Source: Clostridia bacterium (GTDB lineage Bacteria; Bacillota; Clostridia; Christensenellales; CAG-138). Taken from it: a stretch of DNA of 64,000 bases. This document shows, piece after piece, positions 14,349 through 57,672 of this stretch. The notes under the pieces are model-generated. The model ran no database searches. It was not told the origin of the DNA and worked only from the letters and a program-made list of their open reading frames with translations. The stretch spans positions 35,584 through 99,583 of the forward strand of contig JAFQXA010000034.1 in assembly GCA_017407205.1 (NCBI GenBank). Direction: 5' to 3'. Both the position numbers and the translations under genes were made by a program. Each line of letters starts with the position of its first letter. Position 1 is the first letter of the stretch.

Positions 14349-14389
14349 TGTAAAATCCCCTTAAAAAATTATTTTAGCTATTCAAATAC

Positions 14390-14601
14390 GCAGCTGACCT
14401 GGTCTTTGACCCCACACTCGCCAACAGGACGGTTTGCTACTAGGCATTTTCGCTTCCCACTCCCCGTCTCTCGACACAAGGCCGGTTGGACTTACTTCTA
14501 AGCCGCACCATGATCACCGAAATTTTTTCAGCTTACGTGGATCGTTTAGCCTGCGACTGGCATCGACTTTCAACCACAGACCTGCACATTAGAATAACCT
14601 G
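14390..14601 (-). ncRNA. candidate structured RNA (stand-alone ncRNA or long 5' leader of the zinc-ribbon gene); class unknown
   Basis: The 347-nt intergenic gap has no credible ORF and is visibly GC-richer than its flanks. It has its own promoter (14608-14636). Long-range pairing: 14579-14583 with 14402-14406, 14571-14574 with 14407-14410, 14558-14562 with 14421-14425 (includes a G-U valid only on the minus strand), and 14551-14554 with 14426-14429. The 3' end is undefined. Confidence 0.4.
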
Positions 14602-15374: not shown

Positions 15375-18300
15375 TCATATTCCGATTACTTTTTTCTGCA
15401 ATGCCGCAATATCTCTCGAATTAAGTTCCTTGTCGGTTCTCATATCACCGGCAATGGTTGTAATTTCATCTGCTTGTGCTGTTCCCAGAATTATCTTCTG
15501 TATAGCGGCTATATCTCTTGAATTTATTTTGCCATCACCCGTCAAGTCGCCAACAATCGCAACATCGAGCGTATCAACAACTTCTCCGTCTATAACAAGC
15601 CTTATTTGTGCACCTGTGCCTACAAGCGCATCACCCTCTGTAATCTTGTTGCCCAGATTATCATAGATTTCTATATTTTCGGGCTTATCAAATGCAGTTA
15701 TTATCTGTATCAGAGAAGTTTTTTCTTCAACACCCTTTAACTTTCCGTTTTCTGCCACATAAGTGCTTTCCGCTTTAAGTGTAAGTCCACTCGGAACAGG
15801 CAGCGTAGGTTCAGGTGTGGATGTAGCCTCCGCTGTGGGTGTAGGCGTTGGGGGTACGATGTCCGACTTATAGTCAGTTATTACCTCTGCACCCAATGTT
15901 CTGCGAATTGCGTAGTTACTTATTGCACGGAGCATTATTACTGTTATGCGGTCAAAGCATAAGCTTCCGTCCAAGCCGTTGACTTTCATCGCAGTCGGTG
16001 CTTGATTTGCGTGTGCCTTGACATATTTGGCATACGCTTTTCCGAGATAAAGATAATCGTCTTTGTCTATCACTTCATCTTCAAATGTGTCTTCACGCAC
16101 AGGGTTGATGGGATTGGTTACTTCGTACACCGTTATGGTTTCAGGCAAATCCTTGTAATCCGAATCCCAGGAAAGTTCTTTGAGCACTTCCGCCGCCATC
16201 TCTGCATAAGTTGCCTGCCTGAAGATATATTTTACTTCTTCACCGTTTTTGTTTGTAAACTCAACAGTCTTGCTTGATGGAATCTGTGCATACATATCCT
16301 TTTGATATGCTTCATAAAGTGATGCGCAGGCAGTTATTGCAAGCTTCATCGGAATTTCATACGATGTTCTTGCTGTTTCATAGTCTGCGGAAATGCTTTC
16401 GGGCAATATGCCTGTTTTTCTGAAGCTTCGCATGATTCTTGCAAGCACCAGAAGTTGGTGTGTGAAATTCATGCTTCCGCTGTACGGGAAACCTTCTGTT
16501 TCTTCAAACTCTACTGTCATAAGCGGTTGACGTCTTGAATACTTGTCAAGCTGTTCAAGCTGTTGTTCAACAAAATGAACATATCCTTCCTTGCCTATCA
16601 GGTTTTCAGCTTCGTTTACAACAAAGCTGTCAGAAGCCGTCCAAGTAAGCTCTGTGCAATCCTGTAATATTACCCTGTGAACAGCACCTGTATTTGAAAG
16701 CTCCGAAACTGCCTTTGCACAAACATCAAAAAACTGTGACATATTGAGCAATTCGTCTTTCAGGATTACGCTTTGGGGCAGAATGAAGTTTTCATCATAG
16801 TAGTCAATAAGACTCTTTGATGCAGAAATTATATCCTCGACCTCAGCATAAGTCTTTCTCTCCATTGCTATATCAATATTTTCGGGAAGCTCGCCATATT
16901 TTGCAAGGTATGAGAATATTCTCATAACAGTTATCAGTGTACGGTTGTAGTCCATCCTTCCGTTTATTCCGTAGCTGTGGTTTACCGCAATAAAGGGCGC
17001 GGGAACACACAGATACTCGTTTTCTTGTGTGAGTGTATTCATCTGTGCAAGCTGCCTTTTTACGACGTTTGAGTATGCCAACTTACTCATTGTGTCAGAA
17101 GACATTCTTGCTTCCTCCACGCCTTGAGGCTCTGTGCAAGTATAGTATGGAACATCATTTTCGTTTGCATCAAGAAGATTTGTGAGTGCTTCACAGGCAA
17201 CTCTGAAATATGATGCTTTATTTGCTGTAATTTCACCAAATGTAAGACTTTCGGGAACTGTACCTGTTTCTTCGTATTCTTTTCCTGCCTCCATCAAAAC
17301 AGCCGTTGCTTCGTCAAGCGTGAATACAGCTTCCGGCTCAGGTGTAACAATAGGTTCGACTATTTCTTCGTCCAAATAGCGCTTTGCCATTCTGAACTCA
17401 AACTTATTGCCATATGAGTCATAAAGGGAACTTTTATTACTTACAAAGTATATAGGCATTTCAGTTGAGGGCCAGATTTCCGAAATATCCTGTTTTGCCT
17501 TGAAAGTGATTTCCATGAGCCTGTCTATTTTATTGATGGGAACAGCAGCATCCGACCAAATGAATCGGAATTCCTTTGTGTCCTCATTATATACACTTTC
17601 CTTTACAGTGTCTGCACTTCTGTCATCAGGTAACTTAAAAGAAACAAGCTCTATAAATTCCGTGTTGATTCTTATCGAGAAATCCATCGCGCCTATTCTT
17701 CTCGCCTTAAAGCCGACGGGGGCACTTATAGTTACTTTAAATTCTTCGCCTGCTGATATGGAATGCTTATCCGCTGTAAGATTAAACGCATTTTCTGCAG
17801 CTGTGTAGTTATATGTAACGGTTTTGTTCTTCATGCCCTTTACCGCACGCTGGAATGCCAAAAGATCCAAAGCATTGATTTTTTTGTTTCGGTCAACATC
17901 AATTACATCCTTTGTTATTCCAATATGCTTTGTGCCGTTTAAAATCGCATCCGTTATAATGTCGGAGTCCGTTTCATTTCCGTAGCCATCCGCATTAACA
18001 TCACCGTTGACAAGCATTACGATTGAATCCAAAATCGTTTCTTCATTTTCTCGGCAAACACACCAACCTGTACGAACTATGCTTTGATTGTCAGTTATTC
18101 TGTTGCCTTTTTCGTCTGCAACATACAAATCACGGTTCACAAAGTTTTTCAAAAACGCTTCAATCGTTGTGCCGCCGGGTACATTTTTCAGATAGTCAGT
18201 TGAATAATCAAGAACATAGAAGCTTTCTTCACGAAGCTCTATCGCCACTCTTTCATTTCTCTTGTATGCAGTTGTTATGTATTCCGGCAGAACACCGTTA

Positions 18301-18875
18301 TTATAGTAGTAAGCGAGTGCCCACGAAAGTATACCGGCAACACGCGGTGCTGAAATATTACCTGAATATTCCGTTATTTTATCATTCGGATACGCAAGAT
18401 AATCAAACGCGCCACTTCCTGTTTCTGCATAATATGCCAAAACTTCATCTGCCATATCAAGGTACATTTCCTTTGATACCATGGGCGCTTTAAACGTATC
18501 ATCAGAATACTCACGGAAAGGCACAAACTCGTATGTAATCCTCATGTCAGTATTACCCTCGGACAGAGCTTTTAGTATTCTCGCTGCCAGCAAAGTATAT
18601 GACGGTGTATTGAAAACATACAGAGTTGAGCTGTCGCCTCTCATTGTAGCCCTGTCTGCAACTTCAGTATGGGTATAAAACCTGTTTCGAACAGCATTGA
18701 AACGCTGCAATGCAACCCCCATTGAAATATCGTCTTCAATAATAACGATATCGGGATTCCATTCATCATCAGGATCAGGATTTTGAGCAAAGCTCGGCAT
18801 AACCGCCATCAAAACGAAAGCTATCGCCAGAACGAAGGCTGTCAACTTTTTTATTGTTCTATTTAATGAATACAT
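15375..18875 (-). CDS. secreted scaffoldin-like protein: PMBR-like repeat modules, internal dockerin, cohesin-like domain, C-terminal dockerin
   Basis: Preferred start is ATG at comp. 18873-18875 (MYSLNRTIKKLTAFVLAIAFVLMAVMPSFAQ is a signal peptide) behind AGGAGAG. Dockerin Ca-loops: DVNADG...DVDRNKKINALDLLAFQRAV (~17835-18010) and GDLTGDGKINSRDIAAIQ...GDMRTDKELNSRDIAALQ (15375-15560). Cohesin-like beta-sandwich pattern at ~17400-17815. Repeated modules end in LPE[YNS]I. Confidence 0.75.
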   Translation of the reverse strand: MYSLNRTIKKLTAFVLAIAFVLMAVMPSFAQNPDPDDEWNPDIVIIEDDISMGVALQRFNAVRNRFYTHTEVADRATMRGDSSTLYVFNTPSYTLLAARILKALSEGNTDMRITYEFVPFREYSDDTFKAPMVSKEMYLDMADEVLAYYAETGSGAFDYLAYPNDKITEYSGNISAPRVAGILSWALAYYYNNGVLPEYITTAYKRNERVAIELREESFYVLDYSTDYLKNVPGGTTIEAFLKNFVNRDLYVADEKGNRITDNQSIVRTGWCVCRENEETILDSIVMLVNGDVNADGYGNETDSDIITDAILNGTKHIGITKDVIDVDRNKKINALDLLAFQRAVKGMKNKTVTYNYTAAENAFNLTADKHSISAGEEFKVTISAPVGFKARRIGAMDFSIRINTEFIELVSFKLPDDRSADTVKESVYNEDTKEFRFIWSDAAVPINKIDRLMEITFKAKQDISEIWPSTEMPIYFVSNKSSLYDSYGNKFEFRMAKRYLDEEIVEPIVTPEPEAVFTLDEATAVLMEAGKEYEETGTVPESLTFGEITANKASYFRVACEALTNLLDANENDVPYYTCTEPQGVEEARMSSDTMSKLAYSNVVKRQLAQMNTLTQENEYLCVPAPFIAVNHSYGINGRMDYNRTLITVMRIFSYLAKYGELPENIDIAMERKTYAEVEDIISASKSLIDYYDENFILPQSVILKDELLNMSQFFDVCAKAVSELSNTGAVHRVILQDCTELTWTASDSFVVNEAENLIGKEGYVHFVEQQLEQLDKYSRRQPLMTVEFEETEGFPYSGSMNFTHQLLVLARIMRSFRKTGILPESISADYETARTSYEIPMKLAITACASLYEAYQKDMYAQIPSSKTVEFTNKNGEEVKYIFRQATYAEMAAEVLKELSWDSDYKDLPETITVYEVTNPINPVREDTFEDEVIDKDDYLYLGKAYAKYVKAHANQAPTAMKVNGLDGSLCFDRITVIMLRAISNYAIRRTLGAEVITDYKSDIVPPTPTPTAEATSTPEPTLPVPSGLTLKAESTYVAENGKLKGVEEKTSLIQIITAFDKPENIEIYDNLGNKITEGDALVGTGAQIRLVIDGEVVDTLDVAIVGDLTGDGKINSRDIAAIQKIILGTAQADEITTIAGDMRTDKELNSRDIAALQKKVIGI

Positions 18876-18914
18876 TTTTAACTCTCCTGTTTGCAATTCT
18901 TAAACTCCAAGTTT

Positions 18915-30896: not shown

Positions 30897-30930
30897 AAAA
30901 AGCTGTCCTCGCGGACAGCTTTTTATTTTC
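30895..30930. terminator. bidirectional terminator (holA / end of the 7-gene operon)
   Basis: AAAAGCTGTCC-tcgc-GGACAGCTTTT, flanked by an A-run and a T-run. Confidence 0.8.
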
Positions 30931-30933
30931 CAA

Positions 30934-32001
30934 TTATCTTTTAACAACATTATGATATTGATAAAATCGACGTGCTCTCGGATTTGCCAAAATCGGTTCG
31001 AACGGCTGAACACCTGCCATGTCTGTATTTGCATTACCTTCAAGCAATATAAACTCTCCGTTTTCTTGAACGACAACATCCCAGGCAATATATTTTATGT
31101 ATTTCACTTTATTGTGCACGGATAAAATTTTTGCCTTGATTTCATCAAAATGAGAAACCCTCTCTCCCTCAATCGGCATATTGGTATCGGGATGATGAGT
31201 AATCCATGTGAGTTTTCTGTCACGTACAAGATATACAGGGGACATTACACCTGTATCCACATCTATTCGTGCAAGGCATGAGCCTTTGCCAACGTTATCC
31301 ACAGGAACGGATCTTTCAGAACCAAAGCGATGGAAACAAGCGGCAAGAAACGCGTCCTGCGTGTCCGGATCTATCATAGTAATAAATTTTACAGTGTTTG
31401 CAGTCCGCGGGAAAATTTTCTTTGAATATTCGGCCTGTTCCACCGTTTCGCTGATCATGTAATTATTCAGCTTGCTCAGCTTTTTATTTAAATCGGCTTC
31501 GGAAATTTCCTTTTCATTGAGATAGTAGCTGCCATTATATTTGCCTACTTTGAAAATACCTTCACCGCTGCCTGCATCAAACTTTTTAATCATGTATGAA
31601 GAATTATCTTTCAAATGCCTATCTAAAAAATCAATAGGATTTTGAGGTGTACGCTCTCCCCCTGCCTCCAGCGGAACTACCTTGCCACGCATGAAATATC
31701 CCGGAGTCTCTGCCATTTTCACAAATGCTCGCATATAATCCGTGAATACTAATTTATTGTTAAGCAGCTCGGTATATCCGGCATTGATTTTTATGGCTTT
31801 TGTATACATTTCCCAATCCGTAAGGAAATCCTTGCGGTCATACTTTTTGAAATCGTAAAAAACAGCCTGATCCGGCATAAAGCCATGGAAAAGCACAGAC
31901 ATTTTTTGCCTGAATGTTACATCAAACTTGCCGCTTCCGGGCTGAAGCCATTTCTTAAGATATCGAACAAGTCCAGCAAAAAACAACAGTTTTTTCTTCA
32001 T
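30934..32001 (-). CDS. ATP-grasp ligase, sugar-transfer-associated type (ATPgrasp_ST-like)
   Basis: 355 aa. N-terminal LFHGFMPDQAVFYDFKKY...LNNKLVFTDYM and C-terminal FILLEGNANTD (E-x-N Mg site). Family assignment is from memory of the family pattern. Confidence 0.6.
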   Translation of the reverse strand: MKKKLLFFAGLVRYLKKWLQPGSGKFDVTFRQKMSVLFHGFMPDQAVFYDFKKYDRKDFLTDWEMYTKAIKINAGYTELLNNKLVFTDYMRAFVKMAETPGYFMRGKVVPLEAGGERTPQNPIDFLDRHLKDNSSYMIKKFDAGSGEGIFKVGKYNGSYYLNEKEISEADLNKKLSKLNNYMISETVEQAEYSKKIFPRTANTVKFITMIDPDTQDAFLAACFHRFGSERSVPVDNVGKGSCLARIDVDTGVMSPVYLVRDRKLTWITHHPDTNMPIEGERVSHFDEIKAKILSVHNKVKYIKYIAWDVVVQENGEFILLEGNANTDMAGVQPFEPILANPRARRFYQYHNVVKR

Positions 32002-32038: not shown

Positions 32039-33133
32039 TCATTTATATGTTTTCTTGCGGTTAACACCCACGGAACGGAAAATCAATCGTTTAAACTTTC
32101 TTACGCCATATACAGTCAACATACACAATTTGCTCGCCACCGCGTATATCGGTTTCGGCAGGGCATACAATTTTGACAACAGTTCAAAGCGTATTTTTGC
32201 ACCATGTAATTCCTTTCCCGTAAGCTCATATGTCACGGGAGTATATTTTTTCTGTTGTGCAAATGCAACTTCAACGACACTTCGTGTATCTGTGTCAAAG
32301 ACAACAATCATGGTACGTCTGTTGATTTTCTGCCATGTTTTGTGAGTCAAGCACGATACTTTCATCAGCATATCTGTTTCGGCATACTTATCTCCAACAT
32401 GTGGATAACAAAGTTCTTGATGTTCATTCAAAAAGAAATTAGGGAACATAAGATTTCCCAGCGAAATATATGCTTCTTTACCGTTGTGACAAACTTTTCC
32501 CAGCGGAATATGAGGATGATGGCCGATTATCAAAACACATTTTGGATGCTCGAGTATTTTTTTTGCCCAACTTATAATTTCTTCGGGGGGAAGCGCAACA
32601 TATTCTGCCGCCCAATGAATAGAGACAATCGCATCATTATCACCCAAATTATCCAAATCTGAAATTACTTTTTCCAGCGAAAACCCATTTACACCCGGCT
32701 TATTATCTTCTGCACAAGAGACATTCCTTAAATAATGTGTGCCGTACTGACAATATGCTAACATTACTAAATTATCAGTAATTTCAATACAGCGCCCGGC
32801 TTCTTGCTGATTACTGCCTGCACCAACAAAAGGTATTCCCCACTCATTTAAGCAACTGAGCGTATCCAAGATGCCGTCATCACCGCAATCATGAATATGA
32901 TTGTTAGCCAATGTTACATAATCTGCATTCAATGACTGTATACGTTCTCTGCAATCGGGTGTTGCATATATGGTAGTTTTACCGCTTATCGGCAACTTTT
33001 TGCTTATGCATTGTTCGAGATTAATAATTCGCTTATCAGCATTGGAATATTGCGAAATCCTTATATGCTCTAATGATTCGCTCGACAGTGCATCTCCGAC
33101 AATAGCACAATCACCACCAAAAGCTATCTTCAT
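32039..33133 (-). CDS. CapA/PGA_cap family metallophosphatase-like protein
   Basis: 364 aa. VTLANNHIHDCG, SIHWAAEY, IIGHHPH motifs. No signal peptide or TM seen. ATGA overlap with the upstream gene. Confidence 0.75.
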   Translation of the reverse strand: MKIAFGGDCAIVGDALSSESLEHIRISQYSNADKRIINLEQCISKKLPISGKTTIYATPDCRERIQSLNADYVTLANNHIHDCGDDGILDTLSCLNEWGIPFVGAGSNQQEAGRCIEITDNLVMLAYCQYGTHYLRNVSCAEDNKPGVNGFSLEKVISDLDNLGDNDAIVSIHWAAEYVALPPEEIISWAKKILEHPKCVLIIGHHPHIPLGKVCHNGKEAYISLGNLMFPNFFLNEHQELCYPHVGDKYAETDMLMKVSCLTHKTWQKINRRTMIVVFDTDTRSVVEVAFAQQKKYTPVTYELTGKELHGAKIRFELLSKLYALPKPIYAVASKLCMLTVYGVRKFKRLIFRSVGVNRKKTYK

Positions 33134-34368
33134 TCTGCCTCTTCCTCCATAGCTACTATCTTTGCTTTTTTCTTATAAAACAGAACACCGCAGACAACAG
33201 CACAGACAACGCAAAATACATTTGAAATTATGTTAGCATACGAATATCCTAAAAGACCCTGAGTTTTTGTCAGATACAATGTACTTGAAATATAGACAAC
33301 AAAACACAAGCCACGAATAATTATCTGATGAGTAATTGTTGTTTCTGCCAACAAAAACATAAGCAAAAGACCGCTTGCAAAACCGATAACCGAACCTATA
33401 TTTATCGGAAGATTTAAAAGATGAACGCTTTCAGCTAAATTAGGATACAGAATATTTACCACGATAGGTGTTGCAACACAGCAAAGTGCAACCAAAACCG
33501 CACCAACGGGAATGCTCCATAAAAGCATCTTTTTAAACGCTGATAAATTTATGGTAGATGTCTTTCTGTCAGCCAGGTAGCTGAGAAGCAATGTGGACAA
33601 CGGGTGCAATACCATGTTCATAATCTTACCTACCATGGACACCGCATAATATTCCGATACTGCAACAGAGCCCAAAATCGGCTGGATCAATACACGGTCA
33701 AGATAGGCAGTTGAAGAAAGCAAGTAAGAAACAATCAAAATCGTTGTAGGTAACCATAATTTTTTGAGCTCCGTAGTTGGTCTTTGCAAGTGCAAAACAG
33801 AGCCTTTCATCACAACAAACAAAACAGCAGCTATTTCACCGGTTGCAAAAATAACTAACCAATTTTTCACGAGCAGGAACAATCCAAGTCCGGCAATGTA
33901 TCCTGCACTTAAAATTAAGAAGTATATCAAATATCCTTTAAACCAAAGGCTTAAACGGAATTCTACCTGAGCGTAATATCTCAATAAGCATATCACCATG
34001 AATATGCCGATTTCCAACGCAAACAGAAGGTCATTTGTCTTTAAATAAGCGTCACCTGCTCCTATCGCAAAAACGACCAACGAATAAGCGCCAAGCAAAG
34101 TCAGGAAATCACCATTGTTTATGGTTTCATTATGCTTATATAAAATTCTCTGATGTCCGAGCACCGTTCCGAACATTTGCGGAAATACATAAGAAATACC
34201 CAAATAATACAGCACATCACCCAAGTATGCTGCACCATGCGTAGCATTAATATAAGGTTGAATGAAAATCTGCTGTACGATATTAAGTATGATTACAGCC
34301 GAAATCGTATACAAAAAATCTTTTGAGAATTTACCTAAAAGGGATTTCTTGATATTAATGACAAACAC
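33130..34368 (-). CDS. polytopic membrane protein, Wzx/MOP-flippase-like
   Basis: 412 aa and hydrophobic throughout (about 12 predicted helices by eye). The start is a GTG abutting its own AAGAAGG, so the true start is uncertain. Confidence 0.55.
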   Translation of the reverse strand: MFVINIKKSLLGKFSKDFLYTISAVIILNIVQQIFIQPYINATHGAAYLGDVLYYLGISYVFPQMFGTVLGHQRILYKHNETINNGDFLTLLGAYSLVVFAIGAGDAYLKTNDLLFALEIGIFMVICLLRYYAQVEFRLSLWFKGYLIYFLILSAGYIAGLGLFLLVKNWLVIFATGEIAAVLFVVMKGSVLHLQRPTTELKKLWLPTTILIVSYLLSSTAYLDRVLIQPILGSVAVSEYYAVSMVGKIMNMVLHPLSTLLLSYLADRKTSTINLSAFKKMLLWSIPVGAVLVALCCVATPIVVNILYPNLAESVHLLNLPINIGSVIGFASGLLLMFLLAETTITHQIIIRGLCFVVYISSTLYLTKTQGLLGYSYANIISNVFCVVCAVVCGVLFYKKKAKIVAMEEEAE

Positions 34369-34393: not shown

Positions 34394-35662
34394 TTAAAAC
34401 ATCATTTTTTCAATTTCATCAAAAGCCGCCTCATTGCCGGGATACTTTTCACGCAAAATTTCAAGTTCGTAATAACCCGGCTTTGTGTCTTGCGGTACAG
34501 CATACGAGAATACTGTATTCCCCTGATGCTCCCTTATAAAGCCCAAGGCTTTTTCCATGGCTTTTTCACTACTTTCCGACTCGTTCATGCACTTGTTTAT
34601 CAACGCAGTCAAATTTACTCTGTAAAGTGCATCACCCTTGGGGCTTATTGTTCCACTATATGGCTCTAATTCGCCCATAGCATCACGATAAAGCATCGTC
34701 AAATAGTTAAATCCTGCAGCTGCCTGAAAATAGTTTGAAAGCCAAGGTCTCAAATTAGCTTCAATTACAACCCATTTGTTATGCTTCTTGCTATACATTG
34801 TTTCAACACCTAAAAAGCCATGCCAATTTAAAGCTTTTATTGTGCATATTGCAAGAGAAGCAATGTCTTCTTCAAAATATGTCTTGCTGACAACACCCGT
34901 ACCGTACTTGGGTGGATATTCCATTATTTTATGCTGCGCACTAATCATGCGAATATTGCCTTGACCGTCCGCATATAAATAGCACGATACTTCCTGTTCA
35001 AGACGATCAAATTCTATCTTTTCTTGAACTACCACTTCAAAACCTGACTCAATCTCCTCGTTTAGAAGCTTTCTCATCTGTGTTCCATCTTGACATTCAA
35101 CTGCTTTTCTTCCATCATGCATCCTTGCGAATGCATTATCGATAGTCTTTAATGACGGTTTGTAAACGCAAGGATAAACCATATTTTCCACAGCAAAATC
35201 AATATCTTCTTTACTATTAACTGCATATGTCAACGGGATTGAAACATCATGCTCCTGCATCGTTTTATAAAATGTATCTTTCCTAAGCTCTTTCCAGCAA
35301 GTCTTATTAAAATCACTGGCACCGGGTTGCAAAAAATATTCTTCCAATACATCATAATGGTTATTTACGAAAACCAACGCTGTATCGCTCGTGGAAATAA
35401 GCAACAACTTTCTTCCGTATTGTTTAAAGAGCTTCTTTCCGAGTTCCTCCATCTGCTTTGCTGCCATTTCTTCATCGGCAGCAGGATTTGCAATACAAAC
35501 AGGCTCGTTGAAAAACCTTGATTTTTCGCTAATCCAAGCGGAAGCCCCTTCCCATGTGAAAACAACAGGAATAACAGGAATATCCTCTTTCGCAAAGCAA
35601 CGCATAACATCTAAAAAGCAGTTATCACTTGCACGCAATACAACCACAGGTATTTTGCTCAT
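34394..35662 (-). CDS. ATP-grasp carboxylate-amine ligase
   Basis: 422 aa. Pre-ATP-grasp N domain, YPCVYKPS, VVQEKIEF, WVVIEANLRPW (E-x-N). Confidence 0.7.
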   Translation of the reverse strand: MSKIPVVVLRASDNCFLDVMRCFAKEDIPVIPVVFTWEGASAWISEKSRFFNEPVCIANPAADEEMAAKQMEELGKKLFKQYGRKLLLISTSDTALVFVNNHYDVLEEYFLQPGASDFNKTCWKELRKDTFYKTMQEHDVSIPLTYAVNSKEDIDFAVENMVYPCVYKPSLKTIDNAFARMHDGRKAVECQDGTQMRKLLNEEIESGFEVVVQEKIEFDRLEQEVSCYLYADGQGNIRMISAQHKIMEYPPKYGTGVVSKTYFEEDIASLAICTIKALNWHGFLGVETMYSKKHNKWVVIEANLRPWLSNYFQAAAGFNYLTMLYRDAMGELEPYSGTISPKGDALYRVNLTALINKCMNESESSEKAMEKALGFIREHQGNTVFSYAVPQDTKPGYYELEILREKYPGNEAAFDEIEKMMF

Positions 35663-35704: not shown

Positions 35705-37564
35705 TTATCTTAAATTAAATTGCCCATTATGGCTTAACAATCTTTCTTCCTCACTCTGCGCAAATGCTGTTTCCCAGTTATTATAACTGTCAATTGCACC
35801 AAACTTGCCTGCATGAGTAATAATATCACCGTTACGATACTTCTCACTCATAATTCCCGGTGCTGTCATAATGCGTTTATTCATAGCTGACTTAAGAGCA
35901 CAAGGATCTGACAAGCAAGGTATTATATCGCTCGAAATTTGTATTTTTTGTTCTGTAAAGTATTTTGATTCTCTTGCTATATGCTCCAAAATACAAGAAG
36001 CTTCTTTTATCAAATGATTTTTCCGTTCCTCCACGAAAGGATGCTGTGCAGCTCTGCGTATATCTTCATGGTTTTCACGGAACAATCTGACTGCGCGTCT
36101 CAAGAGTTTTGAGCTTTCAATAACATCATCAGCAGTAGCAGCATGATCTGCTTCACAATAGCTAACCAAATGTATAATGCTCGGCGATAACAACATTTGA
36201 AGCAAAGTAGTTCTTGCCAACTGATATTTTGCATAATCCTGGTCTACCGAAAAATGCTCAATTCCTGCACGGGTTTCCAAATAAATATTGTGCTGTGTTG
36301 CTGTAGGCTTAAGTTTTCGGATAATCTCCCGTGCTGCATAAAATTTAGCCAAATCTGCATAATCACCCATTTCAACAGGCTTATTAAACTGGCATTGGAA
36401 GATCATATGTTGTGATAAAGCTGCATACATTACGCTTGCAATCAATCCATAATCTGCTACAAAAACAGCATCATGTGCCAAACGGGATGACCATTGATTC
36501 GGATCATTCATCTCTGTGGGAATACCCTGCTTTACAAGATATTTTACAGCCCCAATATGCTCATCAATGGCTTTATCAACACTCATCGGACCACGGCCGT
36601 CAAGCTCGCTGAACCAAAACAAAGGAACAGCTTGATGTGCACCACGCAACATACCAACCTCAAGGCATGTATCAATAAAAGGAATAATATCCTTTACATG
36701 ACAATACGGCTTCACTGACGGGAAATTACCTATCCGCGAAGCTGAAAACAGCTCTTCTAAATCGGATTTTGTCTTGTACGGAACTCCACCATCGTTTTTC
36801 ACACCATAAAACGCATTAGCATCACCGAAAAATCGCTGTGATAAATCCGACGAGCCCAACGAAATTTCATCCACAGCACCTGCTGACGCAATGCGTATAA
36901 TCCCTTCAACCGTAGGTGCTATTGAATCATCCGGGATGCCAAAATGTGTGCGAATCATCGGAATATCGGATTCTGCCATGCGAGTCGGAAAATGTAAAAG
37001 CGCTTTATCCGATGGTCTTTTTAAAGGCTGCTCATCTAAATACAAATCGCCTCTTACTACTTCTTTTGCTATTTCATCAAGCAGTTCAATTCTTTCAGGG
37101 CTCGCTTCCTCACGGAACACATCCAATATTTTCTGTGCTTCTGAATGATTTTCACCGCCAAAAAACTTGATTGTTCCAATCGTTGTTTCATAAATATCTT
37201 TTGACTGCATCTGTAAATTCAGATTGTATTTAGCATCAAATCCTAACTGATGAACTGCAGCAAGCGTTTCAGGTAATGCCGCAAAGCAAATAGAGCTCTT
37301 TTCAAAAATGAAAGATGCTCCTTGTTCCAAGGCTTGCAAAAACTTCGTTAATTCGCCAATCGCCTGCTCTGCGCTTAAACGATAGCTTAAGCCCAAGAAG
37401 GTCGGACATACCTGCTTTATTATTTCTATTTTCTTTTCCAAAGCGGTATCCGGAGGAACTACTTGTGTCTGAACTCCAAGCATTTTTGCAATTCGTGCAG
37501 CTCTATAAATACCGACAGTATGTGGGTCACCACCCAATGTCATCCCCAAAAAAATACGTTCCAT
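35705..37564 (-). CDS. B12-binding-domain protein fused to a large glutamate-mutase-E-like(?) domain
   Basis: The track starts at 37591. I prefer ATG at 37564 (MERIFLGMTLGGDPHTVG) behind GGAGGA. GDPHTVG fits the DxHxxG cobalamin motif and LGLSYRLS fits SxL. The C-terminal ~480 aa shows only faint similarity by eye to GlmE/MutE (NFPSVK vs GFPGVN). Confidence 0.5.
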   Translation of the reverse strand: MERIFLGMTLGGDPHTVGIYRAARIAKMLGVQTQVVPPDTALEKKIEIIKQVCPTFLGLSYRLSAEQAIGELTKFLQALEQGASFIFEKSSICFAALPETLAAVHQLGFDAKYNLNLQMQSKDIYETTIGTIKFFGGENHSEAQKILDVFREEASPERIELLDEIAKEVVRGDLYLDEQPLKRPSDKALLHFPTRMAESDIPMIRTHFGIPDDSIAPTVEGIIRIASAGAVDEISLGSSDLSQRFFGDANAFYGVKNDGGVPYKTKSDLEELFSASRIGNFPSVKPYCHVKDIIPFIDTCLEVGMLRGAHQAVPLFWFSELDGRGPMSVDKAIDEHIGAVKYLVKQGIPTEMNDPNQWSSRLAHDAVFVADYGLIASVMYAALSQHMIFQCQFNKPVEMGDYADLAKFYAAREIIRKLKPTATQHNIYLETRAGIEHFSVDQDYAKYQLARTTLLQMLLSPSIIHLVSYCEADHAATADDVIESSKLLRRAVRLFRENHEDIRRAAQHPFVEERKNHLIKEASCILEHIARESKYFTEQKIQISSDIIPCLSDPCALKSAMNKRIMTAPGIMSEKYRNGDIITHAGKFGAIDSYNNWETAFAQSEEERLLSHNGQFNLR

Positions 37565-37598
37565 TCTCAATCCTCCGTTAAATATCGCCATATAAGCG

Positions 37599-38876
37599 TC
37601 AGTCCTTTGATGTGAAGTATGTTCCTTTTAGATATTCAACGATAAACTCGTCAGAAAACTCCTCCAAATCTCTCCAAAAATATTTAGGACTATCTGGAAA
37701 TTTCCTGTGATATTGTTCCATTACATATTCCATTGGTGCTATATCAATTTCCAATCTTTTTGCAATCATCATAATAGGCAAAAAACTTGATGGAATATCC
37801 TCTTCAACATAACGCCACTGCGGAACAGACATTTTCTGGTAAGTAGGTGTGCGTTTTATAGTATCCCCCAAAGATTCCCCAATAACTCTTTCTACACCGT
37901 AAGTATAATCAAGCCAATGCTGTGCAGAGACAATCGCACCCGAAAGCAGACTCAATGTTTCACTGCGCGCTTTGCGAAGTTTATTAATATCATCGGTAGA
38001 GTTTTCAATCTTTCGCAATTCGCCCAATAGGAATGCCCATTCTTGCTCTCTCTCTTTTCCGCGCAAGCCGTATGTTTCCATACCTAATTTATCTGCAATT
38101 TTCAGTCGGATCTGATCAATTTCTTCGAGCAATGACGATACCTCTTTTGAATCTCCTATTGCTTGCATATAATACGAATACAGCACCCCTTCTTCTTGTG
38201 CTTTTTTGATATCTTCGTACTTAAGCACATAAGGCGTAGGATGAAACACCGCACCTATATTTCCGATAGAAGTAACAGCAGGAACATAACTTATAATCGC
38301 CTGCGGAAAAACTTTTGACAAAAGCTCTATTGAACTTTTCTTGAAGCAGCCTTCAAGTGATGTCACCCAGCAACGCTTTCTTCTCTTGATATAAGCAGTT
38401 CCGGCAGCAGGGGCCTTACATGAATAGGGATTTGTAGCAAAGCAAATAAAAGGATGCCTTGTACCAAGTATATTCCATAGATACGGAACAGCAAATGTTC
38501 GAGGTGGTGATAAAATTACAGGCACATCAGCTTCCGCAAGCCCCTCTTTTTTTAAGGCCAAAATTGTTTCCTGCAAGTAATGGGACGGCTCTGCTATAAT
38601 AATCAAGTCGCTTTCCCAAACGAGCTTTTTAAGGTCATGTCCCAATTGTTCTTCACAAACAGGAATTAAGCGAGAAGTTTCTTTATTCTTGTTGGCAGGC
38701 CTTTCAAGGTACAATCCGCCCTGTTCCCTTACTGCTTTCAAAAAAGACTCAGCATGAGCACTATTACGAACATAGCCGTAGACTGAATATCCTTCATTAA
38801 GAAAATCCGCAAGATAAGCACGCCCTGTTTGAGAGCTTGCACAATAAATGCCTATGCGAATTTCCTTGTTTGGCAT
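37599..38876 (-). CDS. opine (octopine/nopaline) dehydrogenase family protein
   Basis: The track starts at 38936. I prefer ATG at 38876, 1 nt after the GT2 stop (TAATATG). N-terminal Rossmann-like IGIYCASSQTG. C-terminal RYVEEDIPSSFLPIMMIAKRLEIDIAPM matches the RYxxEDxPxGLvP signature. Confidence 0.65.
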   Translation of the reverse strand: MPNKEIRIGIYCASSQTGRAYLADFLNEGYSVYGYVRNSAHAESFLKAVREQGGLYLERPANKNKETSRLIPVCEEQLGHDLKKLVWESDLIIIAEPSHYLQETILALKKEGLAEADVPVILSPPRTFAVPYLWNILGTRHPFICFATNPYSCKAPAAGTAYIKRRKRCWVTSLEGCFKKSSIELLSKVFPQAIISYVPAVTSIGNIGAVFHPTPYVLKYEDIKKAQEEGVLYSYYMQAIGDSKEVSSLLEEIDQIRLKIADKLGMETYGLRGKEREQEWAFLLGELRKIENSTDDINKLRKARSETLSLLSGAIVSAQHWLDYTYGVERVIGESLGDTIKRTPTYQKMSVPQWRYVEEDIPSSFLPIMMIAKRLEIDIAPMEYVMEQYHRKFPDSPKYFWRDLEEFSDEFIVEYLKGTYFTSKD

Positions 38877-38877
38877 A

Positions 38878-39810
38878 TTAGTCGATCTCCTTATCACGAA
38901 TAGTATACAACGGTCCTTTCTTTGCTTCTGAAACAATCTGAGCCAAGTAATGACCTATAATACCCTGTCCAAGTAATATCAATCCACTGGACGCCAACAT
39001 GATGATGACCTGTGTCGCAAAACCTGCAACGCTGTAACCCGTTACAAGATATCGGATAAGGTAATAGAGAATCAATATCGCACTAACAAATACATCAAAC
39101 ACACCAACATAGCCAAGAACCAACAACGGTAAATTTGAGTTGTATAAAATATTATTGAAAAAGTCCTTCACCAAGCGCTTAAAGCCGTAACCGCTTTTAC
39201 CAAACTGGCGTGCGTTATGCTCAACAGTAACATTTCCTATACGGTTTGTAGTACGCAAAAGCATATGCCCGATTCTAGGGCGTGACTCCGTAAATTTACA
39301 AAGCGCATCAGCTACATAACGCTTCATTGCCCTAAAGCTCGTTAAATGAAGAGTTTTTGGTTTTTTGAAAATATAACTCGTAAACGCATTCGTCATATTA
39401 GTCCCCAAATTTCGAATGGCACTGTGCTTCTTTGATTCATACTGACCACACACTACATCCATTTGAGGAGTTTGCTCCAAATACGCAATCAGCTTTTCAA
39501 CTTCATGAGGAGGATGTTGCAAATCATCATCCATTGTTATAACAATATCACCCGAAACATGTCCCATGCCGCACAACAACGCTGTATGCTGTCCGAAGTT
39601 GCGTGCCATATAAATTGCCTTTACGCGTTTGTCTTTTTCATGCAACTCATGCATAATTTGGGCAGAACGGTCTTTCGATGAGTCATCAACCAAAACAAGT
39701 TCAAAATCACCGTCATACTTTTCGTCAAACAAAGACGCAAGTCTTGCATGCAACTCCTCCAAAGTATTTTCAGAATTGTACACAGGAACGACAACAGAAT
39801 ATTTAGCCAT
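38878..39810 (-). CDS. polyprenyl-phosphate glycosyltransferase, GT2 (GtrB/ArnC/CsbB-like)
   Basis: Preferred start is ATG 39810 (MAKYSVVVPVYN) behind AGGAGA. Has VDDSSKD, MDDDLQH and two C-terminal TM helices. Confidence 0.85.
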   Translation of the reverse strand: MAKYSVVVPVYNSENTLEELHARLASLFDEKYDGDFELVLVDDSSKDRSAQIMHELHEKDKRVKAIYMARNFGQHTALLCGMGHVSGDIVITMDDDLQHPPHEVEKLIAYLEQTPQMDVVCGQYESKKHSAIRNLGTNMTNAFTSYIFKKPKTLHLTSFRAMKRYVADALCKFTESRPRIGHMLLRTTNRIGNVTVEHNARQFGKSGYGFKRLVKDFFNNILYNSNLPLLVLGYVGVFDVFVSAILILYYLIRYLVTGYSVAGFATQVIIMLASSGLILLGQGIIGHYLAQIVSEAKKGPLYTIRDKEID

Positions 39811-39889
39811 TTCCCGTCTCCTTTTCATTTGTATTTTCGCTGTTTTTATTTCTGAATCTTCCTATGTATAAATAGAAATACTCAAAGTA

Positions 39890-39918
39890 ATTATACACTC
39901 CGGCGCTTAATAAATCAA
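39890..39918 (-). promoter_or_regulatory. promoter of the 7-gene operon
   Basis: The reverse strand reads TTGATT (comp. 39913-39918), a 17-nt spacer, then TATAAT (comp. 39890-39895). Confidence 0.6.
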
Positions 39919-50983: not shown

Positions 50984-52042
50984 ATGGATACTAAAAAAAC
51001 TAAACGAACAGCCTTATTCAGATATTTATATATAGGCTTAACAATCATTGTAATATTGCTTATTGGCTTATTGGATCCCAATTTCGAGGGTATGATCGTT
51101 GCGCTTGAAACCTTAAATCCTACTTGGTTTTGCATATCATTTTTCGTACTTTTCATGTATTGGCTGACAGACGCTTTTTTAATTCAGCATATAAGCTCAT
51201 ACATGTACGGAAAATACTCTGTTGCAAAATCGCTTAAAATTGGGCTCATAGGTCTTTACTACGGTGCTCTTACTCCATCTGCAACAGGCGGTCAGCCCAT
51301 GCAGGTAGTATATATGCGCCGTGACGGAATCGGTACCGGAACCGCAACAGGCATAATAGGCGTAAAGCTTGTAGTTTACCAGGCCTCACTTTGTGCTATA
51401 TCCATTGTTTTCCTGATTTTATCGGGAGCTTGGTATTATGCTTCATATAATCAGGTATTTTGGCTTACGCTCATTGGTCTTGTAGTTAACATTGCATTGG
51501 TAGCAATAATCAGTCTGTCGCTTTTTAACCGCAAATTCATCAACAAATGCGGGTTTGGCATCATAAGACTCCTTGAAAAAATAAGAATCTTGAAGTCCGA
51601 AGAAAAAGCAGAAAAAATGCGCGCATCCTTCACGCAAACCATGAACGAATTCCACGAATCGATGAGCTACATAGTAAAACATAAATTCAAGGTTTTTGTT
51701 TCGTTTCTGATCTCGGTCATAAACCTGCTTTTCCTTTTTGCAATCCCATACTGTATCTACCGTGCAATGGGTTTCAGTGAACATTCACTATGCTTTCTTT
51801 TGCCACTCCAAACATTCCTCTACCTGGCTGTTTCATTCATACCTACACCGGGCAGTTCAGGGGCATCTGAAGGCGGATTTTATCTCTTCTACGGCAACAT
51901 ATTCCCGGGTGAAAACCTCTTTGTTTCAATGCTTCTTTGGAGATTCCTTACATACTACGCAATTCTCTTTGTCGGGAGCGGAATAGTGCTCGTTGAAGAA
52001 ATACGTGACGGTAAAAGAAAAAAACGATTAAAAGAAAAATAA
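50984..52042 (+). CDS. flippase-like / LPG-synthase-TM (UPF0104) family membrane protein
   Basis: 352 aa, polytopic. ...GALTPSATGGQPMQVVYM... is typical of the family. Confidence 0.7.
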   Translation: MDTKKTKRTALFRYLYIGLTIIVILLIGLLDPNFEGMIVALETLNPTWFCISFFVLFMYWLTDAFLIQHISSYMYGKYSVAKSLKIGLIGLYYGALTPSATGGQPMQVVYMRRDGIGTGTATGIIGVKLVVYQASLCAISIVFLILSGAWYYASYNQVFWLTLIGLVVNIALVAIISLSLFNRKFINKCGFGIIRLLEKIRILKSEEKAEKMRASFTQTMNEFHESMSYIVKHKFKVFVSFLISVINLLFLFAIPYCIYRAMGFSEHSLCFLLPLQTFLYLAVSFIPTPGSSGASEGGFYLFYGNIFPGENLFVSMLLWRFLTYYAILFVGSGIVLVEEIRDGKRKKRLKEK

Positions 52043-56133: not shown

Positions 56134-57672
56134 TCACCACGCTGTAACTGAAATCTCATCCGGCAAGAAGCCGTTTGCAAAGTAGTAGTCTAAAGCCCTT
56201 GCAAAGAGATAAATCATATTATAGTGATTCATCGTGCCAAACTCAGTCGTGACATATGCAGGTACTGCATTATTTGTATAAACCGCTGTTGCAATTCTCT
56301 GCGCAAGCTTTATATAAGATGTCTTTGTAAATGTTACTTCTGTTATAGTTTCGCTTACTGCACTCTTTGGCGTTGCAATCTCCTTGAGTGGCATATTATT
56401 AGCCTTACCACGATTTATATTGCTTACGGTCGCCGCAAAAAGTCTGAGCATTGTGCCGATATACACTCTCGTGTTTTCAGCAAGAGTTACATACTTCGGC
56501 ATCTCATCAGTGCTTTCAATTGCAACAACAAGGCGACGTGCACCTTTCAAAATATCAACAAAGTTAAGATAAGTGTAATCAGGAGCTACACTGTCCTCGG
56601 GCGGTGTCGGCAAGCTTTCATGCCAAGGCTCCACAATAATGCTGTCAATCAAAATTCCGCTTGATGCATATCTTATGCAGATTTTAACAAAGGTTCTGAT
56701 AAGCGTTTCAGCGGACAACGCACCGACCGTTTGTGTATTTATAAAGCCTTTTACTGCACACTCAGGTGAGTTGTCAACATAGTTCAAAACTGACTGTGCA
56801 GTTTCTACATAATCCCAGCTTTCAAATATAACGCCCGTTATATTTTCGTATGATTTTTCTATGTAAGCCGCTTCGCTTCTCTCGATAATATCGTCAACAT
56901 AGCCGTTTGAGGCATCAACTATTATTTTTGAAACCAAAACCAAGAATTCAGGCATAAACACCTGCTCATTTTCAATCGTTACATACGGGGGACAAGCCTT
57001 ATTTTCTGCTATATATGTATTAACACTTTGGCAAGCCGCGAAAACGCTTGAAGTTTTGAATTCTACCGTTCCTACCTGTGGCGGTGCGGGCATGGGACTT
57101 TCCCAAGATGTCACTTCCACAGATTCGGGAAGTATGCTTGTCTGCCTGTAAAGTGAACCAACACGTGCAAAAGCTCCGATTATGCTGCTGAACGACATCG
57201 CACCAAGAGGTGTCTGTATATAGCCGGGTGCTTCTCCCTTTTTATTGATATAATCTACTGTATCATAAGCCAAGGCGAGATATTCTTGCTTTGTAAGCGT
57301 GCCTGACATCATCTTTTCATACTCAATTGACTTTTCACTTATGCTGTTTCTGAAAACATAAGTTGTGTTGCCTTTTTCTTCGTTTATGATGAATTCAGCC
57401 ATTATGCCGATAAACTCATTCATATAGATGTGATTACCGGCAATTGTCGCATACTTCGGCAACTCACCCGGATTATTGGTAATGTAAAGGTCAACGCCAT
57501 TTGCTGAATAGAGTACATCTTTATCCGGCAAACATTCTAAGTCGGCAGAAGCATGCCCACCATCGTAATATATATCGTTTTCTCCGTTATCGACTAATCG
57601 TGCAAAACTAAAACCCGAAAACACGCTGAACACAAAAGCCAAAGCCAAAACAAACGCGATAGTCTTTTTCAT
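56134..57672 (-). CDS. secreted protein made only of pseudomurein-binding-repeat-like modules
   Basis: Signal peptide MKKTIAFVLALAFVFSVFSGFSFA. Four modules end in ...LPESVEVTSW, ...LIDSIIVEPW and ...FLPDEISVTAW. Paralogous to 15375-18875 and 58784-60910. Confidence 0.65.
   Translation of the reverse strand: MKKTIAFVLALAFVFSVFSGFSFARLVDNGENDIYYDGGHASADLECLPDKDVLYSANGVDLYITNNPGELPKYATIAGNHIYMNEFIGIMAEFIINEEKGNTTYVFRNSISEKSIEYEKMMSGTLTKQEYLALAYDTVDYINKKGEAPGYIQTPLGAMSFSSIIGAFARVGSLYRQTSILPESVEVTSWESPMPAPPQVGTVEFKTSSVFAACQSVNTYIAENKACPPYVTIENEQVFMPEFLVLVSKIIVDASNGYVDDIIERSEAAYIEKSYENITGVIFESWDYVETAQSVLNYVDNSPECAVKGFINTQTVGALSAETLIRTFVKICIRYASSGILIDSIIVEPWHESLPTPPEDSVAPDYTYLNFVDILKGARRLVVAIESTDEMPKYVTLAENTRVYIGTMLRLFAATVSNINRGKANNMPLKEIATPKSAVSETITEVTFTKTSYIKLAQRIATAVYTNNAVPAYVTTEFGTMNHYNMIYLFARALDYYFANGFLPDEISVTAW

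Follow-up and report, generated by a model that had tools for sequence, protein, structure and literature searches.

An opine dehydrogenase-superfamily gene paired with a gene for a predicted B12-dependent, glutamate-mutase-like protein in a polyprenyl-phosphate glycosyltransferase operon of a Clostridia bacterium

Introduction

The characterised opine dehydrogenases (DHs), which include CENDH (1bg6) and the octopine, staphylopine, pseudopaline and yersinopine DHs, have in common a two-domain fold, a catalytic His, an Arg-Tyr-x-x-Glu-Asp motif and the motif PxGLVP. These features are shared by an opine-dehydrogenase-superfamily oxidoreductase (hereafter ODH) encoded on a 64,000-nucleotide (nt) stretch of the Clostridia bacterium contig JAFQXA010000034.1 (GCA_017407205.1; forward strand, positions 35,584-99,583), which we refer to as the window. 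The ODH gene is located on the minus strand at positions 38876..37599 (ATG to TGA, 425 amino acids (aa)) and belongs to clade 1 of a subfamily associated with mutase-like proteins. Its product differs from the characterised opine DHs in its low identity to them (~16%), in its odd glycine loop, and in having a partner gene for a B12-binding, mutase-like protein, which none of the characterised enzymes has.

The nearest described relative of this partner in terms of fold is glutamate mutase, which consists of the subunits GlmS and GlmE and is accompanied by GlmL/MutL in Clostridium and E. coli O157. The partner encoded in the window shares with it a cap-less B12-binding Rossmann domain with a DxHxxG motif and a GlmE-like barrel. 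In the partner, however, a single chain contains both parts, with S preceding E and a long helical linker between them, and the gene is accompanied by an opine DH gene and not by methylaspartase or mesaconase genes.

A family that matches this description was predicted in silico in 11 genomes of four phyla by Zhang, Rodionov, Gelfand and Gladyshev (2009; PMC2667541). Their 'novel B12-dependent protein family' has a distant N-terminal B12-binding domain, its genes are always adjacent to a gene for an octopine/nopaline DH (pfam02317), and D-Ala-D-Ala-ligase-like genes are found nearby. It is very probably the same as the partner family studied here, as judged from its description and not from a comparison of sequences. 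Their study gave no barrel fold, function or link to glycan loci; of these, the fold and the glycan context, but not the function, are added here, together with gene fusions, and the family is extended to archaea, Bacteroidota, Planctomycetota, Myxococcota and Hydrogenedentes. No later characterisation of the pair was found in the literature searched, and searches for opine DHs combined with O-antigens or carboxyethyl substituents, with ATP-grasp or B12 proteins, with glutamate mutase, and with YfhO or teichoic acids gave nothing relevant. Thus, the pairing itself was known before only as the 2009 prediction, and the fold assignment, a second clade, the fusions to MutL and to an ATP-grasp domain, and the setting in a polyprenyl-phosphate glycan operon appear to be previously undescribed.

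Two other known systems bear on the locus. Lipid-carrier glycosylation systems (ArnB/ArnC/ArnT, CsbB/GtcA/YfhO, GtrA/B/C and the Pgf system of S. mutans) resemble it in their family 2 glycosyltransferase (GT2) with C-terminal transmembrane helices, and clusters related to the one in the window resemble them further in encoding DegT (ArnB-like), the GT-C protein YfhO and a flippase-like LPG_synthase_TM protein. These systems transfer plain or formylated sugars, though, and contain neither an opine DH nor a B12 enzyme nor ATP-grasp proteins. The window, for its part, lacks DegT and a recognisable GT-C. The pyrrolysine genes pylB, pylC and pylD offer an analogy of working principle only, in that a mutase, an ATP-grasp ligase and a Rossmann-type C-N dehydrogenase are encoded together. 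PylB is a radical-SAM enzyme that is not B12-dependent and PylD does not belong to the Octopine_DH family; no homology is claimed.

The reading that we prefer, and for which we see an even chance, is that the ODH is a competent enzyme which forms a two-enzyme unit with an isomerase in which a B12-binding domain is fused to a glutamate-mutase-E-like barrel, and that in this operon the product of the unit would be amide-linked to a lipid-carried sugar.

Results and Discussion

ODH genes are paired with genes encoding a mutase-like protein

A scan of one genome per species yielded 80 ODH loci, in which the partner gene was sought by our own open reading frame (ORF) calling combined with BLAST. 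Fifty-two of these loci form clade 1 (41-53% identity), whose hosts are Bacillota, Bacteroidota, Chloroflexota, Thermotogota, Hydrogenedentes, Planctomycetota, Myxococcota, and Woese- and Aenigmarchaeota. The other 28 form clade 2 (22-26% identity) and come from Thermoanaerobacterales, Thermotogaceae, Anaerolineales, Heimdallarchaeota and Methanosarcinales. Both genes were found on the same strand in 41 of the 52 clade 1 loci and 23 of the 28 clade 2 loci (~80% of all 80). The mutase-like gene directly abuts the ODH gene in 29 clade 1 and 22 clade 2 loci, and overlaps between start and stop codons are frequent. Most of the loci in which the pair was missed end at a contig end; only two loci with 10 kb of sequence on both sides lack the partner. 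These two partnerless clade 1 ODH genes are in a Bacteroidales genome (L034, JAFSJF010000037.1) and in locus L051 (JBDRSE010000229.1). The latter may represent a paralogue no longer tied to a partner, because locus L053 of the same metagenome-assembled genome (MAG) retains the pair. Together, these results show that the pairing of ODH and mutase-like genes is ancient and near-obligate.

An exhaustive profile search for the partner family among 1.84 billion proteins gave 412 representatives at E ≤1e-3. Three of them (P0384, P0386 and P0392; L090:8001-11801) consist of the mutase-like protein fused to MutL (PF13941), and in another one (P0371; L091:1174-3765) it is fused to a GshB/RimK-type ATP-grasp domain. 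The genes for the MutL fusion P0384 and the ATP-grasp fusion P0371 are each located immediately downstream of an Octopine_DH gene. The next gene in L091 encodes a protein of the Peptidase_C26 family (gamma-glutamyl-hydrolase-type), and the same is seen in the Methanosarcinales locus L084. Apparent fusions of ODH itself to the mutase-like protein in Planctomycetota (L047, L052 and L053) were discarded; these are long stop-free ORFs that reflect a high GC content, and the two genes are in different frames.

The preliminary description of this DNA, which was based on the sequence alone, took the ODH for a stand-alone opine synthase and overlooked the partner. In a reading built on that view, an amino acid and pyruvate would give an N-(1-carboxyethyl) amino acid of the alanopine or carboxyethyl-lysine type, which the ATP-grasp ligases would attach by an amide bond to a uronic acid in a wall glycan, and the partner would be unrelated. 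The fold and catalytic residues of the ODH, the two ATP-grasp ligases and the GT2 in the operon, and the UDP-glucose dehydrogenase genes present in Alistipes and Acutalibacteraceae loci (see below) are all in line with it, as is the fact that carboxyethyl amino acid substituents are known in O-antigens of Proteus and Providencia. Yet an ODH gene that lacks the mutase-like gene is a rare exception in both clades and across many phyla, and the adjacency is retained in the fusions. Moreover, the operon in the window contains no UDP-sugar dehydrogenase gene, and the subfamily is only ~16% identical to CENDH and has a KRRKR motif and an insertion of its own. We therefore give the stand-alone synthase little chance of being correct and, since the ODH is near-obligately paired with the mutase-like gene, a plain N-(1-carboxyethyl) amino acid is unlikely to be the product.

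The ODH has the fold and the catalytic residues of opine dehydrogenases

The ORF that contains the ODH gene extends, in a program-made list, further upstream to a TTG at 38936. The ATG at 38876 was taken as the start because homologues begin at an ATG. The ODH matches the Pfam family Octopine_DH (PF02317) with 61.3 bits (gathering score 30; E = 1.4e-16) over residues 305-387, and this domain is present in 120 of 120 ODH homologues among the matches listed. The C-terminal motif that had been recognised earlier as an octopine/nopaline DH signature corresponds to residues 355-382; it lies within the Octopine_DH match, which bears out that assignment, and aligns with RYFFEDVSTGLVPL of CENDH. When a profile of 32 subfamily members was compared with the PDB, Arthrobacter CENDH (1bg6) was the sole significant match (E = 3.8e-23). 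An AlphaFold2 model of the ODH (predicted local distance difference test (pLDDT) 93.5) has two domains, an N-terminal Rossmann domain, as had been proposed from the sequence, and a helical Octopine_DH domain. In a Foldseek search with this model the first 14 ranks were all taken by opine DHs, of which 1bg6 was the best (E = 3.5e-16, template modelling (TM) score 0.81), followed by octopine, yersinopine, pseudopaline and staphylopine DHs. Only from rank 15 onwards did ketopantoate reductases appear. The earlier assignment to the opine DHs, which was to be checked against a grouping with ketopantoate reductases or glycerol-3-phosphate DHs, is thus upheld by the fold.

The presence of CntM-type enzymes (6c4t, 6pbn and 6c4l) among the structural relatives raises the question of a staphylopine-type opine metallophore synthase. 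These structures are weaker Foldseek matches than CENDH and octopine DH, and the genomic context is one of glycan and amide-ligase genes. None of the seven operon proteins matches a CntL/nicotianamine-synthase-like, histidine racemase or metallophore transport family in Pfam or NCBIfam, in agreement with the earlier remark that a nicotianamine-synthase-like partner is absent. A metallophore synthase is hardly credible and was rejected.

Residues H212, R355 and D360 of the ODH align with H202, R292 and D297 of CENDH and are invariant in the 32 subfamily members and across both clades. We take H202 and D297 of CENDH to be the catalytic His-Asp pair and R292 to be the Arg that binds the 2-oxo acid. 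Also invariant in the subfamily are G18, K167 and R37; G18 and R37 suggest that the ability to bind NADP(H) is retained, and R37, which is located after strand beta-2, suggests NADPH as the cofactor. The canonical GxGxxG loop is not present in the ODH, which reads IGIYCASSQTG at this position. The subfamily consensus is GIYxVSSQSG, which includes one additional residue, and YxxSSQSG is conserved in the subfamily. Clade 2 ODHs have the canonical loop GAGNGGQA and score 162-175 bits against Octopine_DH. Two further features are specific for clade 1: an invariant basic strand, IKRRKRxW, containing the KRRKR motif, and a helical insertion of 48 aa. To judge from the residues that are kept, the ODH is a catalytically competent member of the opine DH superfamily, and it falls in none of the characterised functional groups of opine DHs.

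The glycine loop, degenerate in clade 1, could also be accommodated if the B12 enzyme had the ODH-like protein as a subunit that is non-catalytic or serves redox maintenance, for instance as an NADPH-dependent reductase keeping cobalamin active, with no opine chemistry involved. The near-obligate adjacency of the genes, the overlaps of start and stop codons and the clade-specific insertions in both proteins, which suggest a complex, would suit such a role. It is nevertheless very improbable: the catalytic His and Asp and the substrate-binding Arg are invariant in both clades, we know of no cobalamin reductase with the ODH fold, and the upkeep of the cofactor is probably the task of MutL, to which some members of the partner family are fused.

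The partner is a predicted B12 enzyme related in fold to glutamate mutase

The partner gene (37591..35705, minus strand) encodes, as called, a protein of 628 aa in which a B12-binding domain is predicted to be fused to a glutamate-mutase-E-like TIM barrel. Its start is probably the second ATG (M10, at 37564), which gives 619 aa; this start is favoured because a GGAGGA sequence is located 7 nt upstream of 37564 and because of the N-termini of homologues (619 aa). The protein has no match in Pfam or NCBIfam, and comparison with PDB sequences, either as a single sequence or as a profile, gave only noise, so that the fold search alone was informative. An AlphaFold2 model (pLDDT 88.5) shows a cap-less B12-type Rossmann domain that a helical linker joins to a TIM barrel, with a helical/beta region at the C-terminus. 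The best Foldseek matches were the glutamate mutase E structures 6h9e_B and 1cb7_B (E = 2e-11, TM score 0.65), followed by lysine 5,6-aminomutase, IcmF, methylmalonyl-CoA mutase, ornithine aminomutase and 2-hydroxyisobutyryl-CoA mutase, all of them adenosylcobalamin isomerases.

Several observations on homologues agree with this assignment. The N-terminal stretch D22-P-H24-T-V-G27 constitutes a DxHxxG cobalamin His-on motif that is invariant in 32 homologues and of which H24 and G27 do not vary in either clade. At the position of this motif 26 of the 32 homologues weakly match PF02310, and clade 2 relatives exceed the gathering score of this family. In a sequence search with one clade 2 member, its N-terminus matched small subunits of B12 mutases in the PDB. 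In most clade 2 partners (L061, L069, L078, L084, L071, L081 and L074) the Asp of the motif is replaced by Cys (G-x-C-V-H-x-x-G) and the His is invariant, which is an unusual variant of the motif for the lower ligand of cobalamin. With respect to the barrel, relatives of the partner score 24.3 and 27.5 bits against Met_asp_mut_E (PF06368; gathering score 26.6), and the partner in the window has no match itself. Clade 2 partners approach the threshold and the ATP-grasp-fused relative passes it, covering profile positions 21-383 of 441. Comparison by hhalign of the partner family with GlmE of E. coli O157, for which an alignment was built, and with GlmS gave probabilities below 1%; the local matches, namely DxHxxG, an 'EA' after strand beta-8 and a C-terminal 'AG-l-DaP' region, are only suggestive. 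The likeness to glutamate mutase is hence one of modelled fold, and at the level of sequence membership of the barrel family is not supported for the partner in the window. The model does allow the annotation of the 628-aa 'hypothetical protein' to be corrected to that of a predicted B12 enzyme.

Glutamate is bound in GlmE by Arg66, Arg100, Arg149, Glu171 and Tyr181. The invariant residues of the partner family are R214, H216, D241, Y296, R333, E360, R370, Q399, R441, H474 and E480. The barrel arginines among them (R214, R333, R370 and R441), together with the KRRKR strand of the ODH, would fit a polycarboxylate or a nucleotide-linked substrate.

Another possibility follows the logic of lysine and ornithine fermentation and of pyrrolysine synthesis: the shift of an amino group or the rearrangement of a basic amino acid by the B12 enzyme would be followed by oxidation or reduction of an imine, with no condensation, and a cyclic or rearranged product would then be ligated. 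Enzymes of the ODH family act on CH-NH bonds, one of the neighbouring ATP-grasp proteins has a weak PylC-like_N match, and the trio of mutase, ATP-grasp protein and dehydrogenase mirrors PylB/PylC/PylD. However, no invariant lysine is present across the family alignment in the B12 Rossmann domain, where aminomutases hold the lysine that binds pyridoxal phosphate. In addition, glutamate mutase E is the closest match by fold and the sole Pfam family matched by the barrel, there are fusions to MutL, and the Arg that binds the carboxylate of the 2-oxo acid in opine DHs is invariant. This alternative is unlikely, with a small but real chance of being right; a carbon-skeleton mutase that acts together with a condensing ODH is the reading that we retain.

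The pair is part of an operon with glycan-related genes

In the window, the pair is located among seven minus-strand genes, spaced by -4 to 42 nt, between one promoter-like site and one terminator. The order is GT2, ODH, mutase, ATP-grasp (422 aa), membrane protein, PGA_cap/CapA-like and ATPgrasp_ST. The putative promoter, a sigma-70-like candidate (TTGATT-17-TATAAT; 39918..39890) identified only by 10 of 12 matches to the consensus, is located in a 196-nt gap upstream of the GT2 gene. A strong intrinsic terminator with a 12-bp stem and a T run (30924..30897, minus strand) closes the operon 10 nt past its last gene. The flanking genes are of the housekeeping type, with holA and comEC on one side and genes for a lipoprotein and VanW, rex and uvrAB on the other.

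The first gene (39828..38878) encodes a GT2 of the polyprenyl-phosphate GtrB/ArnC/CsbB/PgfS type (Glycos_transf_2, PF00535, 119 bits); translation probably begins at the second ATG (39810), which is preceded by AAGGAG, and the start as called is probably too far upstream. Its product aligns over its full length with the NCBIfam models for PgfS (163 bits, positions 2-307 of 308) and ArnC (160 bits, 4-309 of 316). These scores are far under the equivalog cut-offs (500 and 529, respectively) and support membership at the family level only. C-terminal hydrophobic helices are located at aa 235-285. Both the alignments and the helices agree with the earlier identification of this gene as one for a polyprenyl-phosphate glycosyltransferase, and the letters likewise confirm that the ODH start codon is 1 nt past the GT2 stop codon: the TAA occupies 38880-38878, a single base follows at 38877, and the ODH ATG is at 38876-38874. 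The Shine-Dalgarno sequence of the ODH gene, AAGGAG, is located within the 3' end of the GT2 gene, 10 nt upstream of the ATG. The 1-nt gap and the position of this sequence inside the GT2 coding region make translational coupling plausible.

Downstream of the pair, a gene at 35662..34394 encodes a divergent ATP-grasp amide ligase of 422 aa that matches PF02222 just under the gathering score (E = 1.6e-5) and has weak NCBIfam matches to carbamoyl-phosphate synthase (CPS)-like, archaeal Ddl-like, LysX and RimK proteins. Orthologues that are 74% (L086) and 42% (L021) identical are present within the same cluster in related genomes. The second ligase gene, at the end of the operon (32001..30934), encodes a sugar-transfer-associated ATP-grasp protein (ATPgrasp_ST, PF14397, 111 bits). 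The presence of two amide ligases, which had been noted before, is thus confirmed; comparison of the two ATP-grasp proteins with PDB sequences gave no useful relative. Between them are genes for a polytopic membrane protein of 412 aa with ~10 hydrophobic segments, as judged from hydropathy (34368..33130), and for a PGA_cap/CapA-like protein with a metallophosphoesterase fold (33133..32039; PF09587, 117 bits), which overlaps the upstream gene by 4 nt. The latter protein has weak similarity to the C-terminal epimerase of MslH. The membrane protein has no family match even at E = 1. Its orthologue in L086 is 71% identical and encoded at the same position, and we regard it as a candidate flippase or transferase for a lipid-linked intermediate.

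A locus closely related to that of the window, L086 (72% identical relative), contains the same six genes, preceded by YfhO and DegT genes, in the order YfhO-DegT-GT2-ODH-mutase-ATP-grasp-membrane-PGA_cap, and its GT2 gene overlaps the ODH gene. YfhO is a GT-C family protein that moves sugars from C55-P carriers onto teichoic acids. In Hydrogenedentes, both loci (L019 and L021) contain mutase, ATP-grasp, ODH, GT2 and DegT genes. The order in L019 is mutase-ATP-grasp-ODH-GT2-LPG_synthase_TM-DegT, followed by genes for a 769-aa membrane protein and two GFO/IDH/MocA oxidoreductases, and L021 contains in addition an ATPgrasp_ST homologue. GT2 homologues adjoin the ODH gene in L086, L019 and L021. 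In loci of Acutalibacteraceae, Eubacteriales and Alistipes the pair is found among genes for Bac_transf, GT4, Wzy, UDP-glucose dehydrogenase, DegT and one to four ATPgrasp_ST proteins. Paralogues of ATPgrasp_ST adjoin the pair in L003, L020/L088, L021, L028/L087, L029-L031, L035, L038 and L042, and PGA_cap genes recur beside it in L060, L086, L088 and L035, clade 2 included. One of these loci contains another gene related to opine chemistry: in L088 (Eubacteriales MAG JAUNGM010000006.1) a gene at 15451-16431, flanked by PGA_cap genes, encodes a 326-aa protein of the AlaDh_PNT family, which we take to be the family of N5-(carboxyethyl)ornithine synthase. L088 may thus encode a second opine-type synthase that is unrelated to the ODH.

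The context therefore supports modification of a surface glycan, here and in the related loci of Clostridia, Bacteroidales and Hydrogenedentes. The role in glycan decoration that the preliminary description favoured stands as far as this context goes (ATP-grasp proteins, DegT, YfhO and the polyprenyl-phosphate GT2), and does not stand with respect to a plain N-(1-carboxyethyl) opine as the substituent. In Amphibacillus marinus and in a Thermotogota chromosome, and also in Chloroflexota and Planctomycetota, the pair occurs alone, with no glycan genes. Glycan decoration is thus a use that particular lineages make of the pair and does not define its role.

Some of the same neighbours would also suit a peptide-like polymer or oligomer, related to poly-gamma-glutamate but with a modified glutamate in it, of which the pair would provide the monomer; the ATP-grasp proteins would polymerise it, the CapA-like protein and the membrane protein would export it, and the GT2 would make a lipid-linked primer or act separately. 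PGA_cap genes are located beside the pair even in clade 2, and the RimK/GshB-type ATP-grasp fusion, the Peptidase_C26 neighbours and the tandem ATPgrasp_ST genes (four in L087, the most seen) fit such a polymer. Against it, the GT2 gene is coupled to the ODH gene (a 1-nt gap here, an overlap in L086, adjacency in Hydrogenedentes), the DegT, YfhO and sugar oxidoreductase genes of related clusters point to an amino-sugar acceptor, and no PgsB or PgsC homologues are present among the Pfam matches. We consider a polymer unlikely, though worth keeping in mind, and favour attachment of the product of the pair to a lipid-carried sugar.

Proposed pathway

The pair may be regarded as a self-contained small-molecule unit whose product would be used by lineage-specific neighbours. 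The ODH, with NADPH, would join an amine and a 2-oxo acid reductively to give an opine-type N-carboxyalkyl amino acid with two or three carboxyl groups; 2-oxoglutarate, for instance, would yield an N-substituted glutamate. The partner, as an adenosylcobalamin (AdoCbl) enzyme, would convert a glutamate-like skeleton to a branched one of the 3-methylaspartate type, either before or after the ODH step. Two routes can be envisaged. In the first, an amine and 2-oxoglutarate would give an N-substituted glutamate, which the mutase would then convert to a branched residue of the 3-methylaspartate type. In the second, glutamate would be converted to 3-methylaspartate, and reductive N-carboxyalkylation would follow. 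The equilibrium of glutamate mutase favours glutamate, and a coupled, essentially irreversible reduction would therefore make sense as a pull on the mutase. A substrate with a glutamate skeleton is the most economical assumption, because the ODH keeps the residues by which opine DHs hold the 2-oxo acid and protonate the imine and because the partner is glutamate-mutase-like and found fused to MutL and to glutamate-type ligases. The two ATP-grasp ligases would form an amide bond to or from the product, linking it to the sugar, and the CapA-like protein may epimerise or extend the product or help in its export. The GT2 would load the sugar on undecaprenyl phosphate and the membrane protein would flip or transfer it, so that a wall polymer would be decorated.

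Several points weigh against this proposal. As the glycine-rich loop of clade 1 is non-canonical, cofactor use by the ODH is not certain. The similarity in hhalign is at noise level and, therefore, Arg66, Arg100, Arg149 and Glu171 of GlmE cannot be mapped onto the partner, which could be an aminomutase or could act on a substrate other than glutamate. In the window there are no genes for MutL, an adenosyltransferase, DegT or YfhO, neither the acceptor polymer nor a GT-C is encoded, and an Rfam scan of the window detected no cobalamin riboswitch. Finally, because the pair stands alone in many genomes, its product is not intrinsically a glycan substituent.

In its full form the proposal is that of a new AdoCbl isomerase system working with an opine DH, in which a branched N-carboxyalkyl residue of the 3-methylaspartate type is amide-linked to an undecaprenyl-phosphate sugar and displayed on the wall as a B12-dependent decoration. 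We put this forward as a tentative possibility. About a dozen AdoCbl-dependent isomerases are known. If the proposal is true, the B12 carbon-skeleton mutases would gain their first new class in years, and with it the first one that has an opine dehydrogenase as its working partner. If the operon is read correctly, a new non-standard amino-acid substituent, made in a B12-dependent way, would be present on surface glycans of Gram-positive bacteria and Bacteroidota, and the availability of cobamides in gut and rumen communities would be linked to cell-surface structure and to recognition by phages and the immune system. Widespread but rare, and uncharacterised since its prediction in 2009, the family offers a clonable two-gene target for new radical chemistry.

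Other features of the window

Elsewhere in the window, a stand-alone gene on the plus strand (50984-52042), which adjoins a methyltransferase gene, encodes a membrane protein of the LPG_synthase_TM family (132 bits). Although located 11 kb away, it could be the missing flippase, because a gene of the same family directly follows the GT2 gene in the Hydrogenedentes locus L019 (12237-13253). A minus-strand gene at 61147-63561 encodes a protein of 804 aa in which a sugar-1-phosphate nucleotidyltransferase, a hexapeptide (LbH) domain and a phosphoglucomutase/phosphomannomutase domain are fused and which may supply a nucleotide sugar.

The only Rfam match in the window is a full-length raiA RNA motif (RF03072) at 14385-14590 on the minus strand (185 bits; gathering score 101). 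Three minus-strand genes, at 15375-18896, 56134-57672 and 58784-60910, encode large proteins with pseudomurein-binding repeats (PMBR); one of these proteins also contains a type I dockerin and one contains a transglutaminase core. Judged by these predicted domains, the PMBR proteins point to a wall-binding repertoire of the cellulosome type.

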